A stretch of DNA of 19,814 bases, taken from assembly GCF_006345805.1 (NCBI RefSeq), contig NW_021824124.1:1-19814 (forward strand), given 5' to 3'. Positions within the stretch are counted from its first letter, which is position 1. Every line of letters starts with the position of its first letter. Source of the stretch: Octopus sinensis (taxonomy: Eukaryota). Both the position numbers and the translations under genes were made by a program. Shown here piece after piece: positions 2,786 to 19,814 of the stretch. The notes under the pieces are model-generated. The model made no database searches. It worked only from the letters and a program-made list of their open reading frames with translations, and was not told the origin of the DNA.

Positions 2786-3163
2786 GCACACACACACATA
2801 CACACAGATATATATATAGGGAAAGTTTACAAATGTTGATCCTGTCATTTCTTACCACACACAAACTTCTCCACTGGACTCTCTATCTACCCTTTACGAA
2901 TTCTCGTTTTGATATTTACCCTCCGGCTGCACCTCTCCTACATACGGATCACTGTGGACTCTACTACTACTATATATATATATATATATATATATAACAT
3001 ACATATAAGAGGGATGACCACTAAGTGGACATCCATTATGCTAGAAGTCGACTTACTATGGTTTTACCACTAAGAAAGGAATGTTCTCAAGAAAATTTAG
3101 CAAACGCCAAATCGTAAGAGAGAAAGACAAATGAAAAGATACAAAATATACAGATTAATCACA

Positions 3164-3575
3164 AACCAAATGATAACAAAGGTGGTCTGCTGTGAGCAGC
3201 TTGTGCGGCTTAAGTTAGCACTAGAAGAAAAATGACCACTTTTGGTTTCAAGATGAAAGGTGTTCTTTCATCGGGACGATGCTCAGCCACATTCAGTGAG
3301 AATGACATTCCAAAGGCTGAAGCAATTTGAATGGGATACGATGCCCCACCATAATTTGCTGGACATTGCCCCATCCAATTATCAGCAGTCTGAATGATAA
3401 AAATATGAATTCTGTGGCCAAGTGAATTTTGGAAGAGGGGCCTTGCAAGTCTACCAGATAGATAGAAGAACATTGTAGAAAATGAAGGAGAATATATTTT
3501 AGATTAAAAAAGAACTTTGTTTATCTTAATTAAAAAAGTATTGAAAAATTACATTATTTATGCGTTGACCCAATA
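3164..3575 (+). mobile_element. mariner (DD34D-type) transposon 3' remnant
   Basis: Translates NQMITKVVCCEQLVRLKLALEEK*PLLVSR*KVFFHRDDAQPHSVRMTFQRLKQFEWDTMPHHNLLDIAPSNY (decayed HDNARPH and YSPDLAPSDY motifs), then after a deletion/frameshift SEFWKRGLASLPDR*KNIVENEGEYILD*. Mariner-like TIR at 3544-3573 followed by TA. Confidence 0.88.
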
Positions 3576-3849
3576 TATATATATATATATATATTAACAT
3601 ATACAAGGTGTTTTTGTCAGGGTGGCTCAAATTAATAGGTATGCACTTTGAGTGCTCAATTGGGTATGCCACTAAATTCCTGTTGAACTGCAGTTAAACG
3701 TGATTTCCTGACTGTCTTTCTAAAGTGGCTAGAAGTGGCTTCCTCTTGAGCAGGTAGGTATACACATTTTTATGATATAACTGAATTCAATGACCTTGTC
3801 AAGTTGTGCCAAACTGCTTGCCTCTTCTCATCTGTATTTTAACCTATAT

Positions 3850-3858
3850 CTATATTAA

Positions 3859-3954
<96 letters not shown>
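3850..3954. repeat. (TATC)n microsatellite
   Basis: Near-perfect tetranucleotide array. Confidence 0.95.
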
Positions 3955-3957
<3 letters not shown>

Positions 3958-4103
3958 TTTTTTGTTCTTTTCTTCCCTTTTACGATCCCTCTTGATCGAA
4001 AACCTACGCCACCCCCCCTTTTTTTTCTTTTGTTTTTTTGGTCTTTTTTGGTCTTGTAACTTGTCCCATCTGTGTGCAGCCCTGTGTGGCCAATAAAGAA
4101 ACT
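3955..4103 (+). mobile_element. Short non-LTR retroelement 3' end with (TATC)n tail, copy B
   Basis: Inverted copy of 264-432; ends CCAATAAAGAAACT followed by (TATC)n. Confidence 0.7.
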
Positions 4104-4161
4104 TATCTATCTATCTATCTATCTATTTATCCATGTATATATATGAAGAGAGAGCGATAAG

Positions 4162-4237
<76 letters not shown>

Positions 4238-4239
4238 CT

Positions 4240-4399
4240 AAGTTTATGTCAAAGTTCCTACATGTGTCTTGCCATTATGGTTGTTTGCAGCACTGCAGTA
4301 GAGGTTCCAAATGCATGTAAGATGCTGGGCCATAATGGATCCGCAGGGCTTCAAACAACATTAATGATGAAACGCATGTAGGAACTTTAATAAAAACTT
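4240..4399. repeat. Imperfect fold-back element with 59-bp arms
   Basis: 4240-4298 vs the reverse complement of 4341-4399: 46/59 identical by manual ungapped alignment, including AAAGTTCCTACATG/CATGTAGGAACTTT. Confidence 0.85.
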
Positions 4400-4404
4400 G
4401 TGTC

Positions 4405-4700
4405 TATCCTTCCTTCCTTCCTTCCTTCTGCTCCTCCTCCTCCTCCTCCTCCTATTCTTCTTCTTCCTTTTCTTCTCTTCTTTTTCTTTTTCTTCTTCTT
4501 ATTCTCCTCCTCTTCTACTTCTTTTCCTCCCCCCTCTACTTCTTTTCCTCCTCTTCTTCTTCCTTCCTTCCCTTCTTTTTCTCCTTCTTCTTCTTCTTCT
4601 TCTTCTTCTTCTACTTCTTCATCCTCTTCCTCTTCCTCTTTCGTCACCTCCCCTCTTCCCCCTTCCTTCCCTTCCCCCTCCCTCCCTCCCTCCTCCTCAT
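4405..4700. repeat. Polypyrimidine (CCT/CTT)n tract
   Basis: Visible in the sequence. Confidence 0.9.
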
Positions 4701-4904
4701 CATTCACCTCTTCCCACACCCACCTCACTAGCAAGCCAATTTTTATGGCAAGAGCTTACTGCACAGTCAACAGAGACAGCAGCAAATGATGGTCTTCAGG
4801 CGACTTGATTAGTGAGCAGAATCAATTCTGATGAACTCAGTTTCAATTTACTAGTATGGAAATCTGGCTTCACTTATTCTACATAGACATACATACATAC
4901 ATTT

Positions 4905-4925
4905 TACATACATATATATATAATA

Positions 4926-4981
<56 letters not shown>

Positions 4982-5054
4982 ATATATATATATAATATAT
5001 ATATATATATACATATAAATATATATATATATATATATACATATTATAATATAT

Positions 5055-5122
<68 letters not shown>

Positions 5123-5136
5123 CATATATATATATA
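4905..5136. repeat. (TA)n microsatellite
   Basis: Visible in the sequence. Confidence 0.95.
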
Positions 5137-5824
5137 AACATGTGTGTGTGCATAACTGTCACTGCTGCTTTTCTTTCTTCCCTTTTTTAATGCCCCTCGG
5201 GGTGTGGGGAAGGCGAGGATAAATGTATTAATGTTACAACCTCCCCTTCCCCCTCCACTTCCAAATCCACCCCCCCCCCCCGCCAACACCCCACTCCTAC
5301 CCAGCTTCTTTCTCTCTCTGCTCCTGCCTGAGCAAAATTTTATATCTCTAAGGCTTCGTGCCTAATTAAGAAAATTCCTTTTTCTTTTAATATTTGCTTT
5401 TTCGTTTGTTTTGTTTTGTTTTGTTTTGTTTTGTTTACTCATTTATTCATTTGTATATTTGTTTTTTTTTTTATTGTTATATGCATTTGTTAATTTTTAT
5501 CTCTCCCCCCCCATCCACCACCACCACCACCACCACTACACCTGATCCAATGTGTTTCTCTGCTCTTTCCTTCTTTGCAATGCCACTCCAAGGAACACCC
5601 TAAGACACCACCACAACCACCTGCCTGCCTCCCTGCCCAGAATATTACATGTGCAAAACCATTAAAGGCAAGATTTTGGAACAAACTCTGGAGCTGGAAT
5701 CGCAAACAAAAACTTATCTGGTCAACCGAAATTTCTAACCAAATCTCTTTCTATCTTAACCAAATATCTTATTGCTAAACATTCATTAGAAGATTTCGCT
5801 CATCAACTCATTTCAACTCACTCG

Positions 5825-7320
5825 CTTCATCACCATCGCCATAGCCGCCATCACCATCATCGCCAGTGCCACCGCTGCCATTGCCGACATCATTGCCACC
5901 ACCATCACCACCGATGCCGCCACTACCACCATCACCACCACTATCGCCACCACCATGTTTCATCATCTCCACCACAATCACACCTTCCAACACCACCACC
6001 ATCGCCACCAAGAACCACCACCACCACCACCAATACCATCATCGCCTCCACCACCATCGCCACCACCACCATCGTACCATTGCCATCCCCACCATCACCA
6101 ATGCCACCATCACCAACATCACCATCACCAGCATCACCATCATCAGCACCACCATCACCAGCGCCTCAACCATCATCACCACCACTATCGCCACCACCAC
6201 GTTTCATCATCTCCACCACAATCACACCTTCCAACACCACCACCATCGCCACCAAGAACCACCACCACCACCACCAATACCATCATCGCCTCCACCACCA
6301 TCGCCACCACCACCATCGTACCATTGCCATCCCCACCATCACCAATGCCACATCACCAACACCACCATCACCAGCATCACCATCATCAGCACCACCATCA
6401 CCAGCGCCTCAACCATCATCACCACCACTATCGCCACCACCACGTTTCATCATCTCCACCACAATCACACCTTCCAACACCACCACCACCATCGCCATCA
6501 AGAACCACCACCACCACCACCACCATCATCGCCACTGCCATCCCCACCACTGCAGACATTGCCGCCACCACCATCACCACCACAACCACCACTATCAGCA
6601 CCATTGCCATCGTCACCATCACCAACGCCACCATCACCAACGCCACCATCACCAGCGCCACCATCACCAGCGCCTCAACCACCAGCGCCACCTTCAGCAC
6701 CATCAGCAGCAGCAACAACAACAACATCGGCAACAATAACAACAGCAGTTCTATAAACATAATAATGGCCAATGCCATTGACACCAACTCCGCCGCTGTC
6801 CCCACCGCCATCACCTCCAACACCACTATCACCATCAACGCTCCCCCACCACCACCACCACCATCAATAATACCAGCATCTCCTCCATCATCACCACCAG
6901 CAATAAGAAAAACAAAACCACTGATCACTGCTGCCGCTGACGCCACCAACCCAACCAAGGCCACCACAAACAAAATGGCAACTACCACTACCGCCAACAC
7001 AACCAACATCCTACCACCACCACCACCACCACCACAGCCACCACCACTAAGACACCAGCAAAAAGAACAAAAACCAGCACAACCATCAGGAACAACAACT
7101 ACATAATGACCACCACCACCAACAACAACAACAACGACCACCACAGGGCCACCACTTAGCAACAACAACAAACACATGACTATCATCACTACCATCATCA
7201 CCACCACCAGAACCTCCACCACCACCACCACCACCGTCGCCTTTCACCATCTCCACCACAGCCACCATCACCATCACCATCATCACCACCATCTCCACCA
7301 CCATCATCACCACCGCCATG
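5825..7320. repeat. Cryptic (CCA/CAT/CAA)n tract containing a ~244-bp tandem repeat (about 2.4 units, 5933-6530)
   Basis: Marker GTTTCATCATCTCCACCACAATCACACCTTCC starts at 5957, 6201 and 6444 (periods 244 and 243). Confidence 0.9.
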
Positions 7321-9723: not shown

Positions 9724-10152
9724 ATGATGGGTTTCTTTGAGATTCTGTCTACCAAATCTACTCATAATTACTCTACTGAACTGAAAGAAGCCTGTCGTAT
9801 ATATTTATATATATATGTATATGTGCATGTGTGTGTGTTTGTGTGTGTGTGTTTGTCCCCCTAGCATTGCTGGTATCTTTACGTCCCCGTCACTTAGCGG
9901 TTCGGCAAAAGAGACTGATAGAATAAGTACTGGGCTTACAAAGAATAAGTCCCGGGGTTGATTTGCTCGACTAAAGGTGGTGCTCCAGCATGGCTGCAGT
10001 CAAATGACTGAAACAAGTAAAAGAGTAAAAGAGTATAATGCTTTGGTTGGCCCAAGGCTATAGTAGAAGACATTTGTCCAAGATCCCATGCAGTGGAACT
10101 GAGCCTGGAACCATGTGGTTGTGAAGCAAATGTCTTACCACTCAGCCACGCT
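9724..10152 (-). mobile_element. 5' part of the major tRNA-derived SINE, split by a nested insertion
   Basis: 9724-9768 and 10035-10152 join into one sequence collinear with 12036-12198; A-box/B-box-like head GTGGCTGAGTGGTAAG...GGCTCAGTTCC on -. Confidence 0.8.
9769..10034 (+). mobile_element. 5'-truncated copy of the major SINE with an (AAAAGAGT)-like tail
   Basis: Reverse complement matches 11300-11500; flanked by an ATAAT direct repeat (9764-9768, 10035-10039). Confidence 0.85.
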
Positions 10153-10945: not shown

Positions 10946-11535
10946 TGAAAGATTGTTAGGGTAATTTTGTTATTATCCAGTGCGGGGGACAGAAGGGAAG
11001 CCAGGATTTTTTTTTGTCTTTTGGTTTTTCTGCAGGGATGTGAAGAATACGGAGTGGGAGGATGGGGATCATGGGGGTGGGGGGGGGAAGAATTGGTTTG
11101 GTTTTAGACTAAGAACAAAATTACCATGGTAACTGGACAAAATGTTGTAATTACTGAATGTGTGATCTCCTTTAAAATACATACCAATGAACAATGCAAC
11201 CCCCACGCACACACATATACATTGCACTCAGTAAATAACTTCAACATATATTCTTTTATTCTTTCATTCTTTTATTCTTTCATTCTTTTATTCTTTTATT
11301 CTTTTATTTGATTCAGTCATTTGATTGCAACCATGCTGGAGCACCACCTTTTAGTCGAACAAATCGACCCCAGGACTTATTCTTTGTAAGCCTAGTACTT
11401 ATTCTATCGGTCTATTTTGCTGAACTGCCAAGTTATGGGTACGTAAACACACCGACATCAGTTGTCAATTGATGGTGGGGGAACAAACACAGACACACAA
11501 GCACATATATATATATATATATGTATATAAATATA

Positions 11536-11572: not shown

Positions 11573-12017
11573 CAAAATAAGAAAATGGAGAAATACAGCC
11601 AAATCAAACATCCACTACCAGATAATACCCAATCGCATACTTTATTAAACCACCACATAGAAACTTTAAGGTCAAACATAATAATATAGGACAAAACAGT
11701 GTACATAAAAGAGTAATATGATACAATAAGTACAATATGTATAAGAGAATATAAATATAAATAAATATAAATATAAACTACATCTTACAGCTGTTTCGGC
11801 CATGCAGATAAGTATATATATATATAGTAAATCCAGAATAGAAGAACAAGCAAAAAAAACAACAACACGAGGATGTGGTACATGTAAGGTATTAGCAGAC
11901 ACTCAGGGAAAGAAAGAAAGATGGTTTAACGTTTTGAGCAATGCTCTTCTTCAGAAACAGAGGAAAGTCCAATCCAATAGAAAGGAAGACGGAGGAAGAA
12001 AATCACCAACGATTCAC
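11566..12017 (-). mobile_element. Two Penelope-like (pLTR-derived) fragments inside the SINE's (TA)n
   Basis: On -: hammerhead 3' half GGCCGAAACAGCTGTA at ~11786-11801 and a near-complete minimal hammerhead at 11924-11958. Confidence 0.5.
11924..11958 (-). ncRNA. Minimal type I hammerhead ribozyme motif, G12 mutated
   Basis: GUUU-CUGAAGA-A-GAGC(AUU)GCUC-AAAA-CG-UU-AAAC: stems I and II pair perfectly; the core GAAA reads AAAA. Confidence 0.6.
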
Positions 12018-12340
12018 ATATATATATATATATGCCAAAAGGCTTCTTTCAGTTTCCATCTACCAAATCCATTCATAAGGCTTTGGTTGGCCAAGGCTAT
12101 AATAGAAGACGCTTGTCCAAGGTGCCACACAATGGGACTGAACCTGGAACCATGTGGTTGGGAAGCAAGCGTCTTACCACACTGCCACTTCTGCGCCTAT
12201 ATATATATATATATACACACTCACAGACACTCATATATATACATAGATACACACACACACACACACACATTAACATGTAGATAGATATATTAGATAAACT
12301 GACTGATAGATATAGTTCTGTTAATAACTTCAACATATGT

Positions 12341-12741
12341 CCAGGTATGGTTGTGTGATCACAAACTTGTTTCCCAACCACATGGTTCAGTCCCACAACA
12401 TGTCACCTTGCGCAAGCATTTTCTACTATAGTTGTGGGCCAACCAAAACCTTGTGAGTGGATTTGGTAGATGGAAACTGGAAGAAAGAAGCCTGCGGTAT
12501 ATATATCTGTATACATCTATGAGTCTTTGAATCTGCATTTGTCACCACCACCACTTGACAACCGGTGTTGGTGTGTTTATGTTCCCATAACTTCGCAGTT
12601 CAACAAAAGTGACCTATAGAATAAGTACTAGGCTTTAAAAAATAAGTCCTGAGGTCAATTTGTTTGACTAAAACCCTTAAAGGTGGTACCTCAGCAGTGC
12701 CACAGTCAAAATGATTAAAACATGCAAAAGAAGTAAAGATA
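12341..12741 (+). mobile_element. Diverged full-length copy of the major SINE
   Basis: Collinear with the reverse complement of 12036-12198 plus 11300-11500. Confidence 0.85.
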
Positions 12742-12745
12742 CACA

Positions 12746-12887
12746 AGGGGCTTCAACACAGTTTCCACTACAAATTTCACCCACAAAGATTACAAAAAAA
12801 ATAAACCTTCCCAAGATGCTGCATAGTAGGACTGAACCTGAAGCCATGCAGTAGCAAAGTAAGCTTCATAACCACACAGCCATACCT
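12746..12887 (-). mobile_element. Degenerate 5' part of the major SINE or a relative
   Basis: CCCAAGATGCTGCATAGTAGGACTGAACCTG...AACCACACAGCCATACCT resembles 12115-12198. Confidence 0.65.
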
Positions 12888-13034
12888 TGAAATATATTCA
12901 TATATTTCGCTTTAGTTCTCTAATTTGTTTCAGCAACCCTCTGATGCTTTCTTTCCTTTCTTCTCTTCTTTGTCCTATTTCACAATTACTGTAGTCATTA
13001 AGATACTTTCACATGAATGCAATATTTCTAAGTA

Positions 13035-14289: not shown

Positions 14290-14481
14290 GTATTTTTGTG
14301 ATTATGTTTGTACCTTCCATCACTTGACCACCCATGTTAGTTAATTTATATACCTTTAACTTCACAGTTCAGCAAAAGTTACTAATACAATAAGTACCAA
14401 GCTTAAAACGAAATAAGTATTAGGGGTCGTCTTGTTCAACGAAACCCTTCAAAGGACTGCCCAAGCATGGCTGCAGTCCAA
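14290..14481 (+). mobile_element. Degenerate 3' half of the major SINE
   Basis: CACTTGACC...AATAAGTACCAAGCTT...AGCATGGCTGCAGTC is collinear with 12550-12710. Confidence 0.7.
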
Positions 14482-14530
14482 AACTAATCTTACTCAAATT
14501 CCACTCTTCTATTCTATGTAATGGTCAAAA

Positions 14531-14887
14531 TAGTGTCCTCACCTTCATTGTTATTTTCACTAGGTTTTAGCTGTTTTATTTCCCCCCCTACCTTTTTCAG
14601 GTGTCTTGTGATTTACCTTAGTGCCTTACCTGGGATTGAACTCAGTGCCCCTAGATGACTGCAATGCATTTCAATACCTTTATCCATTAAGCTTTAAAAA
14701 TTTACTCTGACGCTGTCAACAGAAATAGCATAGTGGATAAAGGCACTGCTTAATGCAGTGCAGTCATCTAGAAGTTCTGACTTCAATACCGATCAAGGCG
14801 CTAAGGTGAACCAGAAGACATCTGAAGAAGGCTGGAGTATATGCAGATGAAACATACTAAAAGCCATAATGACGAGGAGGATATAAC
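14531..14887. mobile_element. Old palindromic element: head-to-head tRNA-like head + hammerhead-like tail
   Basis: Arms ~14531-14693 and ~14726-14887 (exact CTAGATGACTGC/GCAGTCATCTAG). A-box TAGCATAGTGG; B-box GAGTTCAATCC in the left arm on -; CTGAAGA at 14822 and GAAAC at 14849. Confidence 0.7.
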
Positions 14888-15299
14888 TCCAACTAATACA
14901 TTATCTAAAAATTCTTTGTCTCAGAAATATATAGACTTTTATTATCCACCCCATTAATTTGGTAAAAACTGGCCACATTAAATACCTGAACTATAATTTC
15001 CCAGATATATAAGAAGAGAAGAATTCTTCATTGCTGGAAGAGGCCTCCTCATTCAGAGCCAAGCTGGAGCTAAATAACCACAAAGACAACAAACAAATGT
15101 TTTTGACACGGTTTTGATTATATTTTGAGGCTTTTGTGAATGACAAACAGCAGAAATGAAGCCTGAATCATTTGGTTTCACAGTAGACATTGTAACCACA
15201 TTAGCCAAACCTGTAAATATATATCACATATATATGTATATAAAAATCATATATATCTATATATATATATTAGAAGGTTTGGAGATGTTGTACAGGTAT

Positions 15300-15423
15300 T
15301 ATATATTAGAAGAAATGAGGTACTCAGAAATCCGGATGGTTTTATATTTACAGATATATTAATAAATATCTGTAAATATAAAACCATCCAGATTTCTGAG
15401 TACCTCATTTCTTCTAATATATA
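15300..15423. repeat. Near-perfect hairpin: 58-bp arms, 8-nt loop
   Basis: 15300-15357 is the reverse complement of 15366-15423 with one mismatch. Confidence 0.95.
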
Positions 15424-15841
15424 TATATATACATTTCTAGAATTTATGACCCTATACGTGACGTCCTTTGTATCTTTATATACTTATTTCTTTACATCTT
15501 TACTTTTTTTATTATATTTTATATTTATTATCATCCTTTATAATTATGTTTAAATTTATATATATATTTTTCCTTGTTTGTGATCCCAACTTCATTAAAG
15601 TTTCACCCCTTCCCCTCCTTTCCTTTTTCTCTCAACATCCAATACCTTCCCTTATATGAAGTAATCTACCCAGTATTCATTCTTTACCGAGTGAAGAAAC
15701 GGTATGGACGATTTGTTTTGGAGTCTCGCAATACCATGTACGCCTATGAGGATTTACTTTCCCAACGAAACTCGGTTTTTTTTCAAACTCTTTCTTAAAC
15801 CTGTTATAATGTGATACAAGTCTTTGGTGTGGCAATTGTAC

Positions 15842-15934
15842 GCGGCTGAAGAAGGCTTTTGATCTATCTGTTATATCAATTATGCATTGATATGAGAATA
15901 AGTTGTTCAATAAAGCCCGAAACATATGTACCGC
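15842..15934 (+). ncRNA. Type I hammerhead ribozyme motif (Penelope-type) with extended stem II
   Basis: Stem I GCGG/CCGC; CUGAAGA 15846-15852; stem II GGCUUU/AAAGCC with internal hairpin AUAUCAAU/AUUGAUAU; GAAA 15919-15922; stem III AC-AUAU-GU (palindromic); cleavage triplet GUA ending at 15930. Confidence 0.75.
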
Positions 15935-17394: not shown

Positions 17395-17520
17395 CAGTGG
17401 TTCGCAACCATTTTTCACCTATGGACCCTTTTAATTCCTATTTTGCTCCACTGGACTCTCAAAGCCATTCAATGTTTTAAAAGTCCAATTATATTTATGT
17501 AATTAAATATTAACTGGAAT
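17395..17520 (+). mobile_element. Possible hAT (Charlie-like) MITE end
   Basis: Starts CAGTGGTTCGCAACC, resembling the CAGTGGTTCCCAACC hAT TIR; no partner TIR found. Confidence 0.4.
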
Positions 17521-17522
17521 TA

Positions 17523-17732
17523 AAAGGCAGAGAACTGGCATAGTTGTTAGCCAGCTGGCCAAAGTGCTTAGCCGTGTTTTATCAGTCTTTACATTCTGAA
17601 TTCAAATCCCGCAGGGGGTTGACTTTGGTTTTCATCCCTTTATAGGGTCGATGAAATAAGTACCAGTTGAGCACTGGGGCTGATGTAACAGACTTGCTCC
17701 TCTCCTGAAATTGCTGGGCTTGTGCCAAAAAT
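17523..17732 (+). mobile_element. Second tRNA-derived SINE family
   Basis: A-box-like TGGCATAGTTGTTAG; B-box-like GAATTCAAATCCC; body TTTCATCC...GGGTCGATGAAATAAGTACCAGTTGAGCACTGGGG; A-rich tail. Its 3' end recurs inverted at 17341-17360. Confidence 0.75.
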
Positions 17733-17779
17733 AAAATAAAATATTAGGAATTATATAATAAAATTGTTAAAATTTTCAC

Positions 17780-17935
17780 ATGCCTGTGTGGTAAGCAGCT
17801 TGCTTCCCAACCACATGGTTCTGGGTTCAGTCCCTCTGCATAGAACCTTGGATAAATGTCTTCCATTATAGCCTAGGTCCAACCAAAGCCATGCAAGTGG
17901 ATTTAGTAGAAAGAAACTGAAAAAGGCCCATCATA
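17780..17935 (+). mobile_element. 5' half of the major SINE (continues at 19582-19814)
   Basis: TGTGTGGTAAGCAGCTTGCTTCCCAACCACATGGTTCTGGGTTCAGTCCC...GAAACTGAAAAAGGCCC matches 12341-12497. Confidence 0.85.
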
Positions 17936-18782: not shown

Positions 18783-18953
18783 GAAGCTATTTTACTCACA
18801 GATGGTGCCCAACTGACCCTACTATACTGTGTAGCCAACAAAATCAAAAACAAACAATGCACATACAGTTCTATATTTAAGAGATGAGGAATTATGCACA
18901 TTATTTACATTATTTACATTTAATGGATATTTGTCCTCATCTTGTTTGTTGTT

Positions 18954-18999
18954 AACACAACGTTTCAGCTGATATTCCCTCCAGCTTTCTTCAGGTGTC
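18954..18999 (-). ncRNA. Minimal type I hammerhead ribozyme motif (left arm)
   Basis: GACAC-CUGAAGA-A-AGCUG(10-nt loop)CAGCU-GAAA-CG-UU-GUGUU: complete core, stems I and II pair, palindromic AACGUU at stem III. Confidence 0.7.
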
Positions 19000-19135
19000 T
19001 TGGTGAAATTTCAAACCTTGGTTCTCATTCCTAAGGTACTTTTCGATGTTGTTGTTGTTGCTGTTGTGCTTCTTCTTCTTCTTCTTCTTCTTCTTCTTCT
19101 TCTTCTTCTTCTTCTTCTTCTTCTTCTTCTTCTCC

Positions 19136-19181
<46 letters not shown>

Positions 19182-19227
19182 CATTATTTTTGTTGTTGTT
19201 GTTGTTGTTGTTGTTGTTCAGGTCACA

Positions 19228-19299
19228 ATATGGTGTAGTGGTTAAGAGCACGGGCTACTAGCCCCAAGATTCCAAGTTCGATTCCAGGCAGTGACCTGA
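19228..19299 (+). ncRNA. tRNA-derived Pol III head (not a functional tRNA)
   Basis: A-box TGGTGTAGTGG 19231-19241; anticodon-like hairpin GGGCT-ACT-AGCCC; B-box AGTTCGATTCC 19275-19285. Confidence 0.75.
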
Positions 19300-19311
19300 A
19301 TAATAATAATG

Positions 19312-19377
<66 letters not shown>

Positions 19378-19424
19378 TCGAAAAATACCTTAGGAATGAG
19401 AACCCAGATTCGAAATTTCCCCGA

Positions 19425-19470
19425 GACACCTGATGAAGGCTGGAGGGTCTATCAACTGAAATGTTGTGTT
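19425..19470 (+). ncRNA. Minimal type I hammerhead ribozyme motif (right arm, partly decayed)
   Basis: GACAC-CUGAUGA-A-GGCUG...CAACU-GAAA-UG-UU-GUGUU. Confidence 0.6.
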
Positions 19471-19581
19471 AACAACAAACATGATGAGGACAAATATCCA
19501 TCGAATGTAAATAATGTAAACAATGCACATGCGCAAAATTAAAAATATAAAATGGCAACAATTTACGCATCGTACCCTGTA

Positions 19582-19814
19582 TATATGTGTGTTTGTGTGT
19601 GTGTGCGTGTGTTTGTACCACTTGTACCACTTGACAACTGATGTTGGTGTGTTTACATCCCCATAACTTAGCAATTTGGTGAAAGAACCAACAGAAAAGT
19701 ACCAGGCTTACCAAAAACAAAAATAAATTTGTAGTGGGATCGATTCATTTGACTAAAAGTTTTTCAATGCAATGCCCCAGCCTGGCCACCAGTCTAATGA
19801 TTGAAGCAAGTAAA
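19582..19814 (+). mobile_element. 3' half of the major SINE
   Basis: CCACTTGACAACTGATGTTGGTGTGTTTAC...AAGTACCAGGCTT...TGATTGAAGCAAGTAAA is collinear with 12550-12730. Confidence 0.85.

Follow-up and report, generated by a model that had tools for sequence, protein, structure and literature searches.

The stretch analysed here, termed the window, comprises 19,814 nt of Octopus sinensis DNA (contig NW_021824124.1); it is AT-rich and microsatellite-rich DNA of animal type, crowded with short repeats. At about 14516 to 14901-14912 it contains two copies of an element of about 190 nt, termed family A, which are arranged head to head and are 72% alike (Table 1). Alignment of the plus arm (14727-14901) with the minus arm (14693-14516) gives 124 identities, 48 mismatches, and 9 gap positions, with a score of 131; 500 shuffles averaged 23.7 and did not exceed 39. 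The inverted pair is confirmed as real; it had been recognized in a sequence-only reading, albeit with slightly too narrow an extent of 14531-14887. In a second study, a contig (run X5, record 26) that differs by two letters spans 14613-15028 and crosses the junction, so the pair is not an assembly artefact. The stretch is present, as a whole or in part, in 10 runs from 6 studies, one of which is possibly the source of the window.

Several other repeats are found in the window. A short, very abundant one is present at 14345-14481 and at about 9857-10030, 11280-11470, 12540-12730, 17520-17730, and 19630-19800; its depth in run X1 is about 160,000 at 14360-14389, and about 35 nt separate the end of its 14345-14481 copy from the 3' terminus of the inverted arm of family A. 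A further short repeat (about 10030-10150, 12050-12190, 12350-12490, 12790-12890, and 17770-17930) has A and B box pairs on the minus strand in three of its copies. At 15315-15408, there is a near-perfect, MITE-like palindrome of about 94 bp.

Table 1: Features of families A and B in the window, and head-to-head joints of family A in other contigs.
Feature	Position	Strand	Basis or remark
Family A
Inverted copy: head, linker, hammerhead-derived tail, decayed	14516-14694	-	alignment; run X1 depth up to 6366
Minimal type I hammerhead remnant, inverted copy	14558-14605	-	stem I 5' strand 14605-14601, core from 14600
Second core box, inverted copy	14568-14565	-	predicted cleavage after 14561; 3 core changes
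B box, inverted copy	14633-14641	-	exact
A box, inverted copy	14684-14694	-	1 mismatch to scan pattern
Short spacer between heads, outside both arm alignments	14695-14718		about 24 nt; bridged by X5 record 26
tRNA-like Pol III head	14719-14800	+	A box 14726-14736 exact; B box 14781-14789 exact in majority of other copies
Minimal type I hammerhead remnant, direct copy	14815-14860	+	stem I 5' strand 14817-14821; first core box 14822-14828 intact
Extra A before stem II, direct copy	14829	+	sequence
Stem II, direct copy, broken	14830-14834 with 14844-14848	+	sequence
Second core box, direct copy	14849-14852	+	predicted cleavage after 14856; sequence
AC-rich 3' extension past predicted cleavage site, common to family B	14857-14912	+	A+C 0.65
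First T4 run 3' of plus-arm head, in flanking DNA; candidate Pol III terminator	14937-14940	+	sequence
Head-to-head joints in other contigs	14624/14725, 14637/14736, 14642/14815, 14644/14739, 14645/14737, 14645/14815, 14670/14887, 14686/14737	minus arm to plus arm	
Family B
Inverted copy, 5'-truncated, headless	18899-19218	-	perfect minimal hammerhead, core 18994
Direct copy: head, microsatellite, middle	19220-19525	+	exact A box 19231 and B box 19276
Tail of direct copy	19424-19525	+	same kind of tail as family A; 1 core change

Family A is a repeated, non-coding, interspersed family. In run X1, bins over the arms have depths of 2876-6366, with single-copy contigs at about 50; most bins of the 3' flank have depths of 0-55 (one bin, 308), falling to about 3 after 14930. 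The same alternative letter is found in 52, 54, and 61 other contigs of this run at 14749, 14767, and 14628, respectively, and such counts at single positions represent a floor that includes only copies at least 80% alike. Pieces of the family are also present in run X5. Head and tail of family A travel together, as is evident from X1 records 3-8, which begin at 14725, differ by 20-23 letters, and extend through the first half of the hammerhead as far as 14837-14846, and from X1 record 2, which joins the B box to the 3' end. The objection that the element might be single-copy, considered in the sequence-only reading, is removed by these copies and their head-to-tail linkage. When the majority letters of other copies are introduced, 94 instead of 81 of the 105 columns are identical between the arms, which fits two decayed copies of one source. 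Family pieces in runs X13 and X22 were not accepted as expression because the RNA nature of these runs is only guessed, and two scans of viral contigs gave no matches.

The window holds a second pair of this kind, termed family B, at 18899-19525. Divergence between the arms amounts to 27.9% of the aligned positions in family A and 11.4% in family B, in accordance with the earlier proposal that family A is the older one. If both arms of a pair arose together, this corresponds to 0.175 and 0.062 substitutions per site per arm, respectively. That these values are near the divergence peaks of PLE/LINE (0.2) and SINE/LINE (0.065) elements in Octopus vulgaris (PMC13282606) is only suggestive. At the family A locus, no target-site duplication was found, the best repeat being 7 nt. 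The window copy of family A is a decayed fossil, old and probably inert here, with no sign of function.

Both families start with a tRNA-like head. In family A, each window arm has one box with a mismatch, the B box of the plus arm having lost its first G. The head motif quoted in the sequence-only reading is exact in the plus arm, while the minus arm has three changes in it and an exact B box. The majority version of family A and the head of family B carry exact A and B boxes, such pairs being found in none of 200 window shuffles; the 5' ends of family A (majority letters) and family B would be endowed with predicted internal Pol III promoters of the A and B box type. Rfam gave no tRNA match for the heads of either family at E up to 10, and ARAGORN at default called 0 tRNA genes, including neither head of family A. 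Under relaxed ARAGORN settings, the majority plus-arm head is read as a tRNA-Leu(taa) whose variable arm is long (score 86.5; at a threshold of 85, one shuffle in 1000 passes), the raw minus arm as Ala(tgc) (84.5), and the head of family B as Ser(act) (90.2; 1 of 1000 shuffles). Since the raw minus arm is called Ala and the majority plus arm Leu, the isotype of family A is tentative; its head would probably derive from a long-arm tRNA such as Leu. The spacing from A to B box is long in family A, exceeding that of family B by about 10 bases. The heads of family A and of the element at 19228 had been described as different in sequence, and indeed alignment of the raw heads gives scores no better than the null (22 and 20); majority letters bring out a similarity confined to the surroundings of the two boxes (score 36; maximum of 1000 shuffles, 32). 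The minus arm of family A has an internal T4 run at 14530.

The tails of families A and B both represent the minimal type I hammerhead motif of Penelope-like elements (PLEs), which is devoid of helix III. In family A, the plus arm has one core mismatch, and stem I is only 3 bp. Both window copies fail the minimal type I descriptor even at three mismatches, their hammerheads being decayed. Other copies provide canonical letters over the minus arm at 14563 (6 contigs, majority), 14569 (4 contigs, majority), and 14568 (3 contigs, minority), and with these letters this arm passes the descriptor, its stems I and II being 3 bp long and its core containing 1-2 mismatches. The check proposed earlier, whether a consensus restores a full hammerhead fold, thus yields in part the minimal form, but not the full one. 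A canonical three-helix hammerhead is not present, helix III being absent and Rfam hammerhead families giving no match at E up to 10 over 14480-14950 or 19205-19560; the below-threshold Rfam models at the two loci are of the hairpin-type miRNA kind only, and a scan of the whole window returned mostly microsatellite hairpins (150 of 186 matches listed). Among the four tails of the window, no compensatory, two-sided change is found in the stems, four copies being uninformative in this respect. All four copies retain 50-60 AC-rich bases 3' of the cleavage site (A+C 0.55-0.65), and the extension of the plus arm of family A would likely be the start region for reverse transcription.

The best-preserved hammerhead is that of the inverted family B copy, with stem II of 6 bp, stem I of 5 bp, an extra base before stem II, and no loop III. 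It is the one perfect match to the descriptor in the window; a single further match, with one mismatch, lies at 11954 and belongs to another family. At up to one mismatch, the descriptor gave no matches in 40 window shuffles. Unconstrained co-folding of two family B tails did not yield a hammerhead dimer. Around the family B pair, there is a 13-nt direct repeat (18852-18864 and 19518-19530), possibly a displaced target duplication, which overlaps the 3' end of the direct copy and is located about 15-35 nt outside the inverted one. A 10-nt inverted repeat (19217-19226 and 19290-19299) is found at both ends of the head, and the inverted copy may have been joined to the head through this microhomology. 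Family B may be one of the octopus tRNA SINEs OK, OR1, and OR2.

The kinship of the two kinds of tail was assessed over the 3'-terminal stretch of about 95 nt. The four comparisons of A with B tails gave scores of 58, 64, 50, and 74, none of which was reached in 400 shuffles each. As a control, family A or B was compared with 29 foreign hammerheads chosen for the same core and stem II, the maximum being 35-47; the narrowest margin is that of the minus arm of family A against the plus copy of family B (50 versus 47). The likeness 3' of the cleavage site alone is marginal, with scores reached by 2, 5, 30, and 106 of 1000 shuffles. Identical stem II is no proof of kinship, since many foreign elements carry the same one; the features that speak for a relationship are stem I, loop II, and the 3' stretch. 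The similarity of the tails, questioned as possibly not significant, stands against both shuffled and foreign sequences, and so does the claim of a tail common to family A and the element at 19424-19490. Together with the multi-copy nature of family A, this supports the earlier view that one ribozyme-type tail was combined with different Pol III heads, in a class of elements and not in a one-off event. When three further hammerhead-like stretches of the window were compared with the A and B tails, their scores did not rise clearly above chance.

Other motifs of this type were noted in the window. At 11912-11962 (minus strand), a minimal hammerhead of another family has one core mismatch and different stems, and is unrelated to the A/B tail. 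At 15836-15930 (plus strand), a hammerhead-like core is discernible by eye, whose stem II is very long and whose loop III is palindromic; it fails the descriptor and is probably another PLE end. A partial second hammerhead box with a palindromic stretch at 11760-11800 (minus strand) is a possible PLE remnant.

Further insight has been gained from foreign elements. The first of two patterns used to scan metagenomes gave no matches. The second, consisting of the hammerhead core plus stem II, gave 29 matches at 28 loci, all of them in foreign elements and none with the A or B tail. Minimal hammerheads (min-HHRs), in which the cleavage triplet directly follows the second box and stem I has at least 3 bp, account for 21 of the 29. 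Locus L015 (1-2783) has a tandem ORF-hammerhead-ORF arrangement with Penelope-type RT/GIY-YIG sequences, the motif occupying the gap between two successive ORFs. Relatives occur in L003, L007, L008, and L014, and related coding sequence in 8 of the 28 loci. The related ORF of L008 matches RT/HTH_animal clusters (0.97) as well as clusters in which GIY-YIG is additionally present (0.96); the GIY-YIG Pfam scores of these ORFs, 17.6 and 22.1 (E 0.005 and 0.0002), are below the curated cut-off of 22.6, and a PDB sequence search with the L008 ORF gave no matches. The position beside RT/GIY-YIG ORFs argues for the core plus stem II motif belonging to PLE pseudo-LTRs. L002, whose ORF is a WD40 protein, and L018, whose ORF has no Pfam family, were not counted as PLE evidence; in L018/L020 (1501-2981), a minimal hammerhead is situated directly upstream of that 469-amino acid ORF. 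A foreign minimal-hammerhead repeat in L010 (1253-1835) forms a head-to-head pair without a tRNA head, 93% alike over 182 nt. The foreign PLE ends have only the core and stem II in common with the A/B tail. By tblastn, no RT was detected in the window, and an autonomous PLE with the A/B tail was not found there. The min-HHRs of PLEs are described as having no helix III, an extra base 5' of stem II, a G-C closing pair, and a short helix I (PMC4209133); the A/B motif is assigned to this type because of the same traits.

The head-to-head layout of family A is recurrent. A minus-arm piece passes into a plus-arm piece at differing breakpoints in 8 of the 15 joints listed (19 in all; Table 1), each joint being represented in a run by a single contig whose shorter side comprises 22-50 letters, at 80% likeness. 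Intervening letters are listed for four of the X1 joints, two of which recur in X5; by eye, these letters are either the continued inverted head (26 of 30 letters at 14645/14737) or the start of the direct head. An additional joint in X5 (14638/14725, one letter between) links an inverted copy cut at the B box to a full head. Not included in the eight are 14711/14815, which starts in the spacer, a joint within the plus arm, and five joints of the "opposite strands" kind, four of them near homologous arm positions and one unexplained. Chance adjacency would concern less than 0.2% of copies, given 100,000 copies in 2.7 Gb (the size being assumed and taken from the contig total of the run). An inverted, 5'-truncated copy at the 5' end is thus found at both window loci and in 8 of the 15 listed joints elsewhere. 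In run X22, a loose end at 14818 matches the middle of the inverted family B copy by eye (23 of 30 letters), which suggests a second B-like inverted locus. An inverted 5'-truncated copy beside the 5' end is reported as typical of PLE insertions, and frequent (PMC8557442). The layout as seen in the sequence-only reading stands; its interpretation as a design does not, the arrangement being best understood as an insertion by-product of Penelope-type enzymes.

From these data, family A is regarded as an old non-autonomous retroposon, in which a tRNA-derived head is fused to about 95 nt of a PLE pseudo-LTR end. It has the boxes, shortness, non-coding nature, and interspersion of a SINE, together with traits of a non-autonomous PLE, namely, the minimal type I hammerhead (perfect in the inverted family B copy, in family A only with majority letters) and the inverted truncated copy; either assignment rests on some features of the class. 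As regards two 3' end points with an optional tail extension of 30-40 bp, the 3' ends of family A are decayed and thinly covered at 80% likeness. Quite probably, family A is a Pol III SINE that was retroposed by Penelope-like enzymes, a route favoured by the inverted 5' copy, which is a known Penelope signature. The process would begin with Pol III transcription from the A and B boxes to a downstream T run. A PLE protein with RT and GIY-YIG functions would then bind the tail and nick AT-rich DNA, and reverse transcription would start on RNA that is still uncleaved, at a point 50-60 nt past the 3' side of the hammerhead. With both nicked strands acting as primers, two cDNAs of variable 5' truncation would meet head to head; eventually, the 3' ends of the pair would face host DNA, and the 5' ends would meet. 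Purified PLE protein has been described to cut AT-rich DNA and to extend both strands; its starting point is an AC-rich stem-loop downstream of the hammerhead, whose cleavage is dispensable (PMC11167929). Single min-HHR motifs of PLEs reportedly show no cleavage, and dimers show low cleavage (PMC4209133). The hammerhead of family A would mainly be an inherited recognition fold, any cleavage of which would need a dimer or the help of a protein.

Alternatively, there could be no free-standing SINE, the unit being merely the 3'-terminal part of a longer element, either a PLE or a derivative of one, with a tRNA-like stretch in its pseudo-LTR. PLE insertions are mostly 5'-truncated and often inverted (PMC8557442). 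Moreover, eight contigs have common letters at 14718-14724, just 5' of the A box, with no loose ends there among those listed; the 5' boundary is not fixed, and a longer common part upstream of the head may exist. All six long family A pieces listed in X1 start at 14725, however, depth falls from 2876 to 392 at the head, and both window arms start at the A box. Exact A and B boxes are not found upstream of the hammerhead in any of the 29 foreign contexts (there is one loose match), and a tRNA-like unit exactly at the 5' edge in two families better suits SINE heads. This explanation is, therefore, considered unlikely.

Decidedly unlikely is an ordinary SINE mobilized by a LINE, with the PLE pseudo-LTR as a passive body and the inversions arising by twin priming or by insertion into earlier copies. 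SINEs are indeed described to exchange heads, bodies, and tails (PMC4758252). No partner PLE was found in the window, and family B may carry its 13-nt repeat as a target duplication. Yet family A has no poly(A), A-rich, or simple-repeat 3' end, and the element stops about 50 nt past the hammerhead. Twin priming inverts the upstream part of one RNA and does not yield two 3' ends; in the window pairs of families A and B, by contrast, each arm carries the 3' tail.

A retrozyme of the Sm-alpha type, in which multimers self-cleave, circularize, and undergo rolling-circle reverse transcription, would share with family A the Pol III head followed by a type I hammerhead (PMC6765202), and the inverted copy of family B does have a perfect core. 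Against this, no head-to-tail joint is found among the 15 listed of 19, and the window pairs are inverted. The two hammerheads of a pair are on opposite strands; hence, they cannot dimerize in one transcript, and the pair is no dimeric ribozyme. In addition, helix III is absent, and copies end 50-60 nt past the cleavage site rather than at it, making such a retrozyme very improbable. A DNA-level fold-back element or MITE with the arms as terminal inverted repeats, as might be proposed from the folding of the family A pair into a single long hairpin (-158.9 kcal/mol versus a mean of -87.4 in 60 shuffles), can hardly be envisaged, since the junctions vary between loci and the arms are unequally truncated, while a MITE would keep a fixed centre.

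Extending retroposition by Penelope-like enzymes to both families, PLEs would have their own SINEs. At least two unrelated tRNA heads would have been fused at different times to one PLE pseudo-LTR end, with the resulting RNAs retroposed by PLE enzymes; the tail of about 95 nt would be a portable minimal cis signal, and the pairs would record two-strand priming. The odds for and against this general scenario appear about even. SINEs are known as passengers of LINEs. If the scenario is true, SINE partnership extends to a third class of retroelements, by way of the Penelope pseudo-LTR end and insertion geometry. The elements would constitute a natural deletion series for the RNA needs of the PLE protein and would bear on the role of the hammerhead when cleavage is dispensable, and the tail kept by two families of different age could serve directly as a minimal substrate in the in vitro assay published for PLEs. 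More speculatively, head-to-head pairs plant long inverted repeats, which could form double-stranded RNA when read through.

Among known systems, the min-HHR PLEs are similar in their hammerhead anatomy, 3' extension, and inverted 5' copy (PMC4209133, PMC8557442, PMC11167929), and opposite-strand min-HHR pairs 100-700 bp apart have already been reported (PMC4209133). Family A differs from PLEs in its lack of an ORF, its own tRNA-like head, and its size of about 190 nt. The Chlamys non-autonomous PLEs (MRC1) have the 3' end in common with an autonomous PLE and insert with PLE structure; they are from green algae and belong to a clade reported to have no canonical hammerhead, and no tRNA head is mentioned for them (PMC8557442). 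Animal retrozymes have been argued to be non-autonomous, tandem PLE derivatives (bioRxiv 10.64898/2026.07.22.740005; PMC7229834; PMC7761336). The non-LTR retrozymes of animals resemble family A in being non-coding, in having a type I hammerhead related to PLE pseudo-LTRs, and in their proposed use of the PLE enzyme. They consist, however, of tandem units, each with a hammerhead, and give circular RNA, and in the accounts consulted no tRNA head is described except for the schistosome case; tandem head-to-tail units of family A are found neither in the window nor among the 15 listed joints.

A close precedent is Sm-alpha of Schistosoma, a short non-coding repeat that combines a tRNA-type Pol III promoter with a type I hammerhead behind it (PMC6765202, PMC4918200), a composition that Sm-alpha and Sj-alpha have in common with family A. 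According to the same accounts, these repeats possess a canonical, active hammerhead and form head-to-tail tandems released by cleavage, in contrast to family A with its minimal PLE motif and head-to-head pairs, for which no tandem joint occurs among the 15 listed. The tRNA SINEs OK, OR1, and OR2 are known from octopus (Ohshima and Okada 1994), OR2 being listed as a CORE SINE. In the papers searched, neither a dispersed tRNA-headed SINE with a PLE end nor a hammerhead in octopus SINEs was found. Most of the recently active SINE families in the octopus repeat study are unclassified, and its supplement does not contain the words "hammerhead" or "ribozyme" (PMC13282606); family A or B may already be catalogued as a plain SINE. 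Summarizing, the union of a Pol III promoter with a hammerhead in Schistosoma and the derivation of retrozymes from PLEs are already known, and to these families A and B would add a dispersed tRNA-headed SINE with a PLE end.
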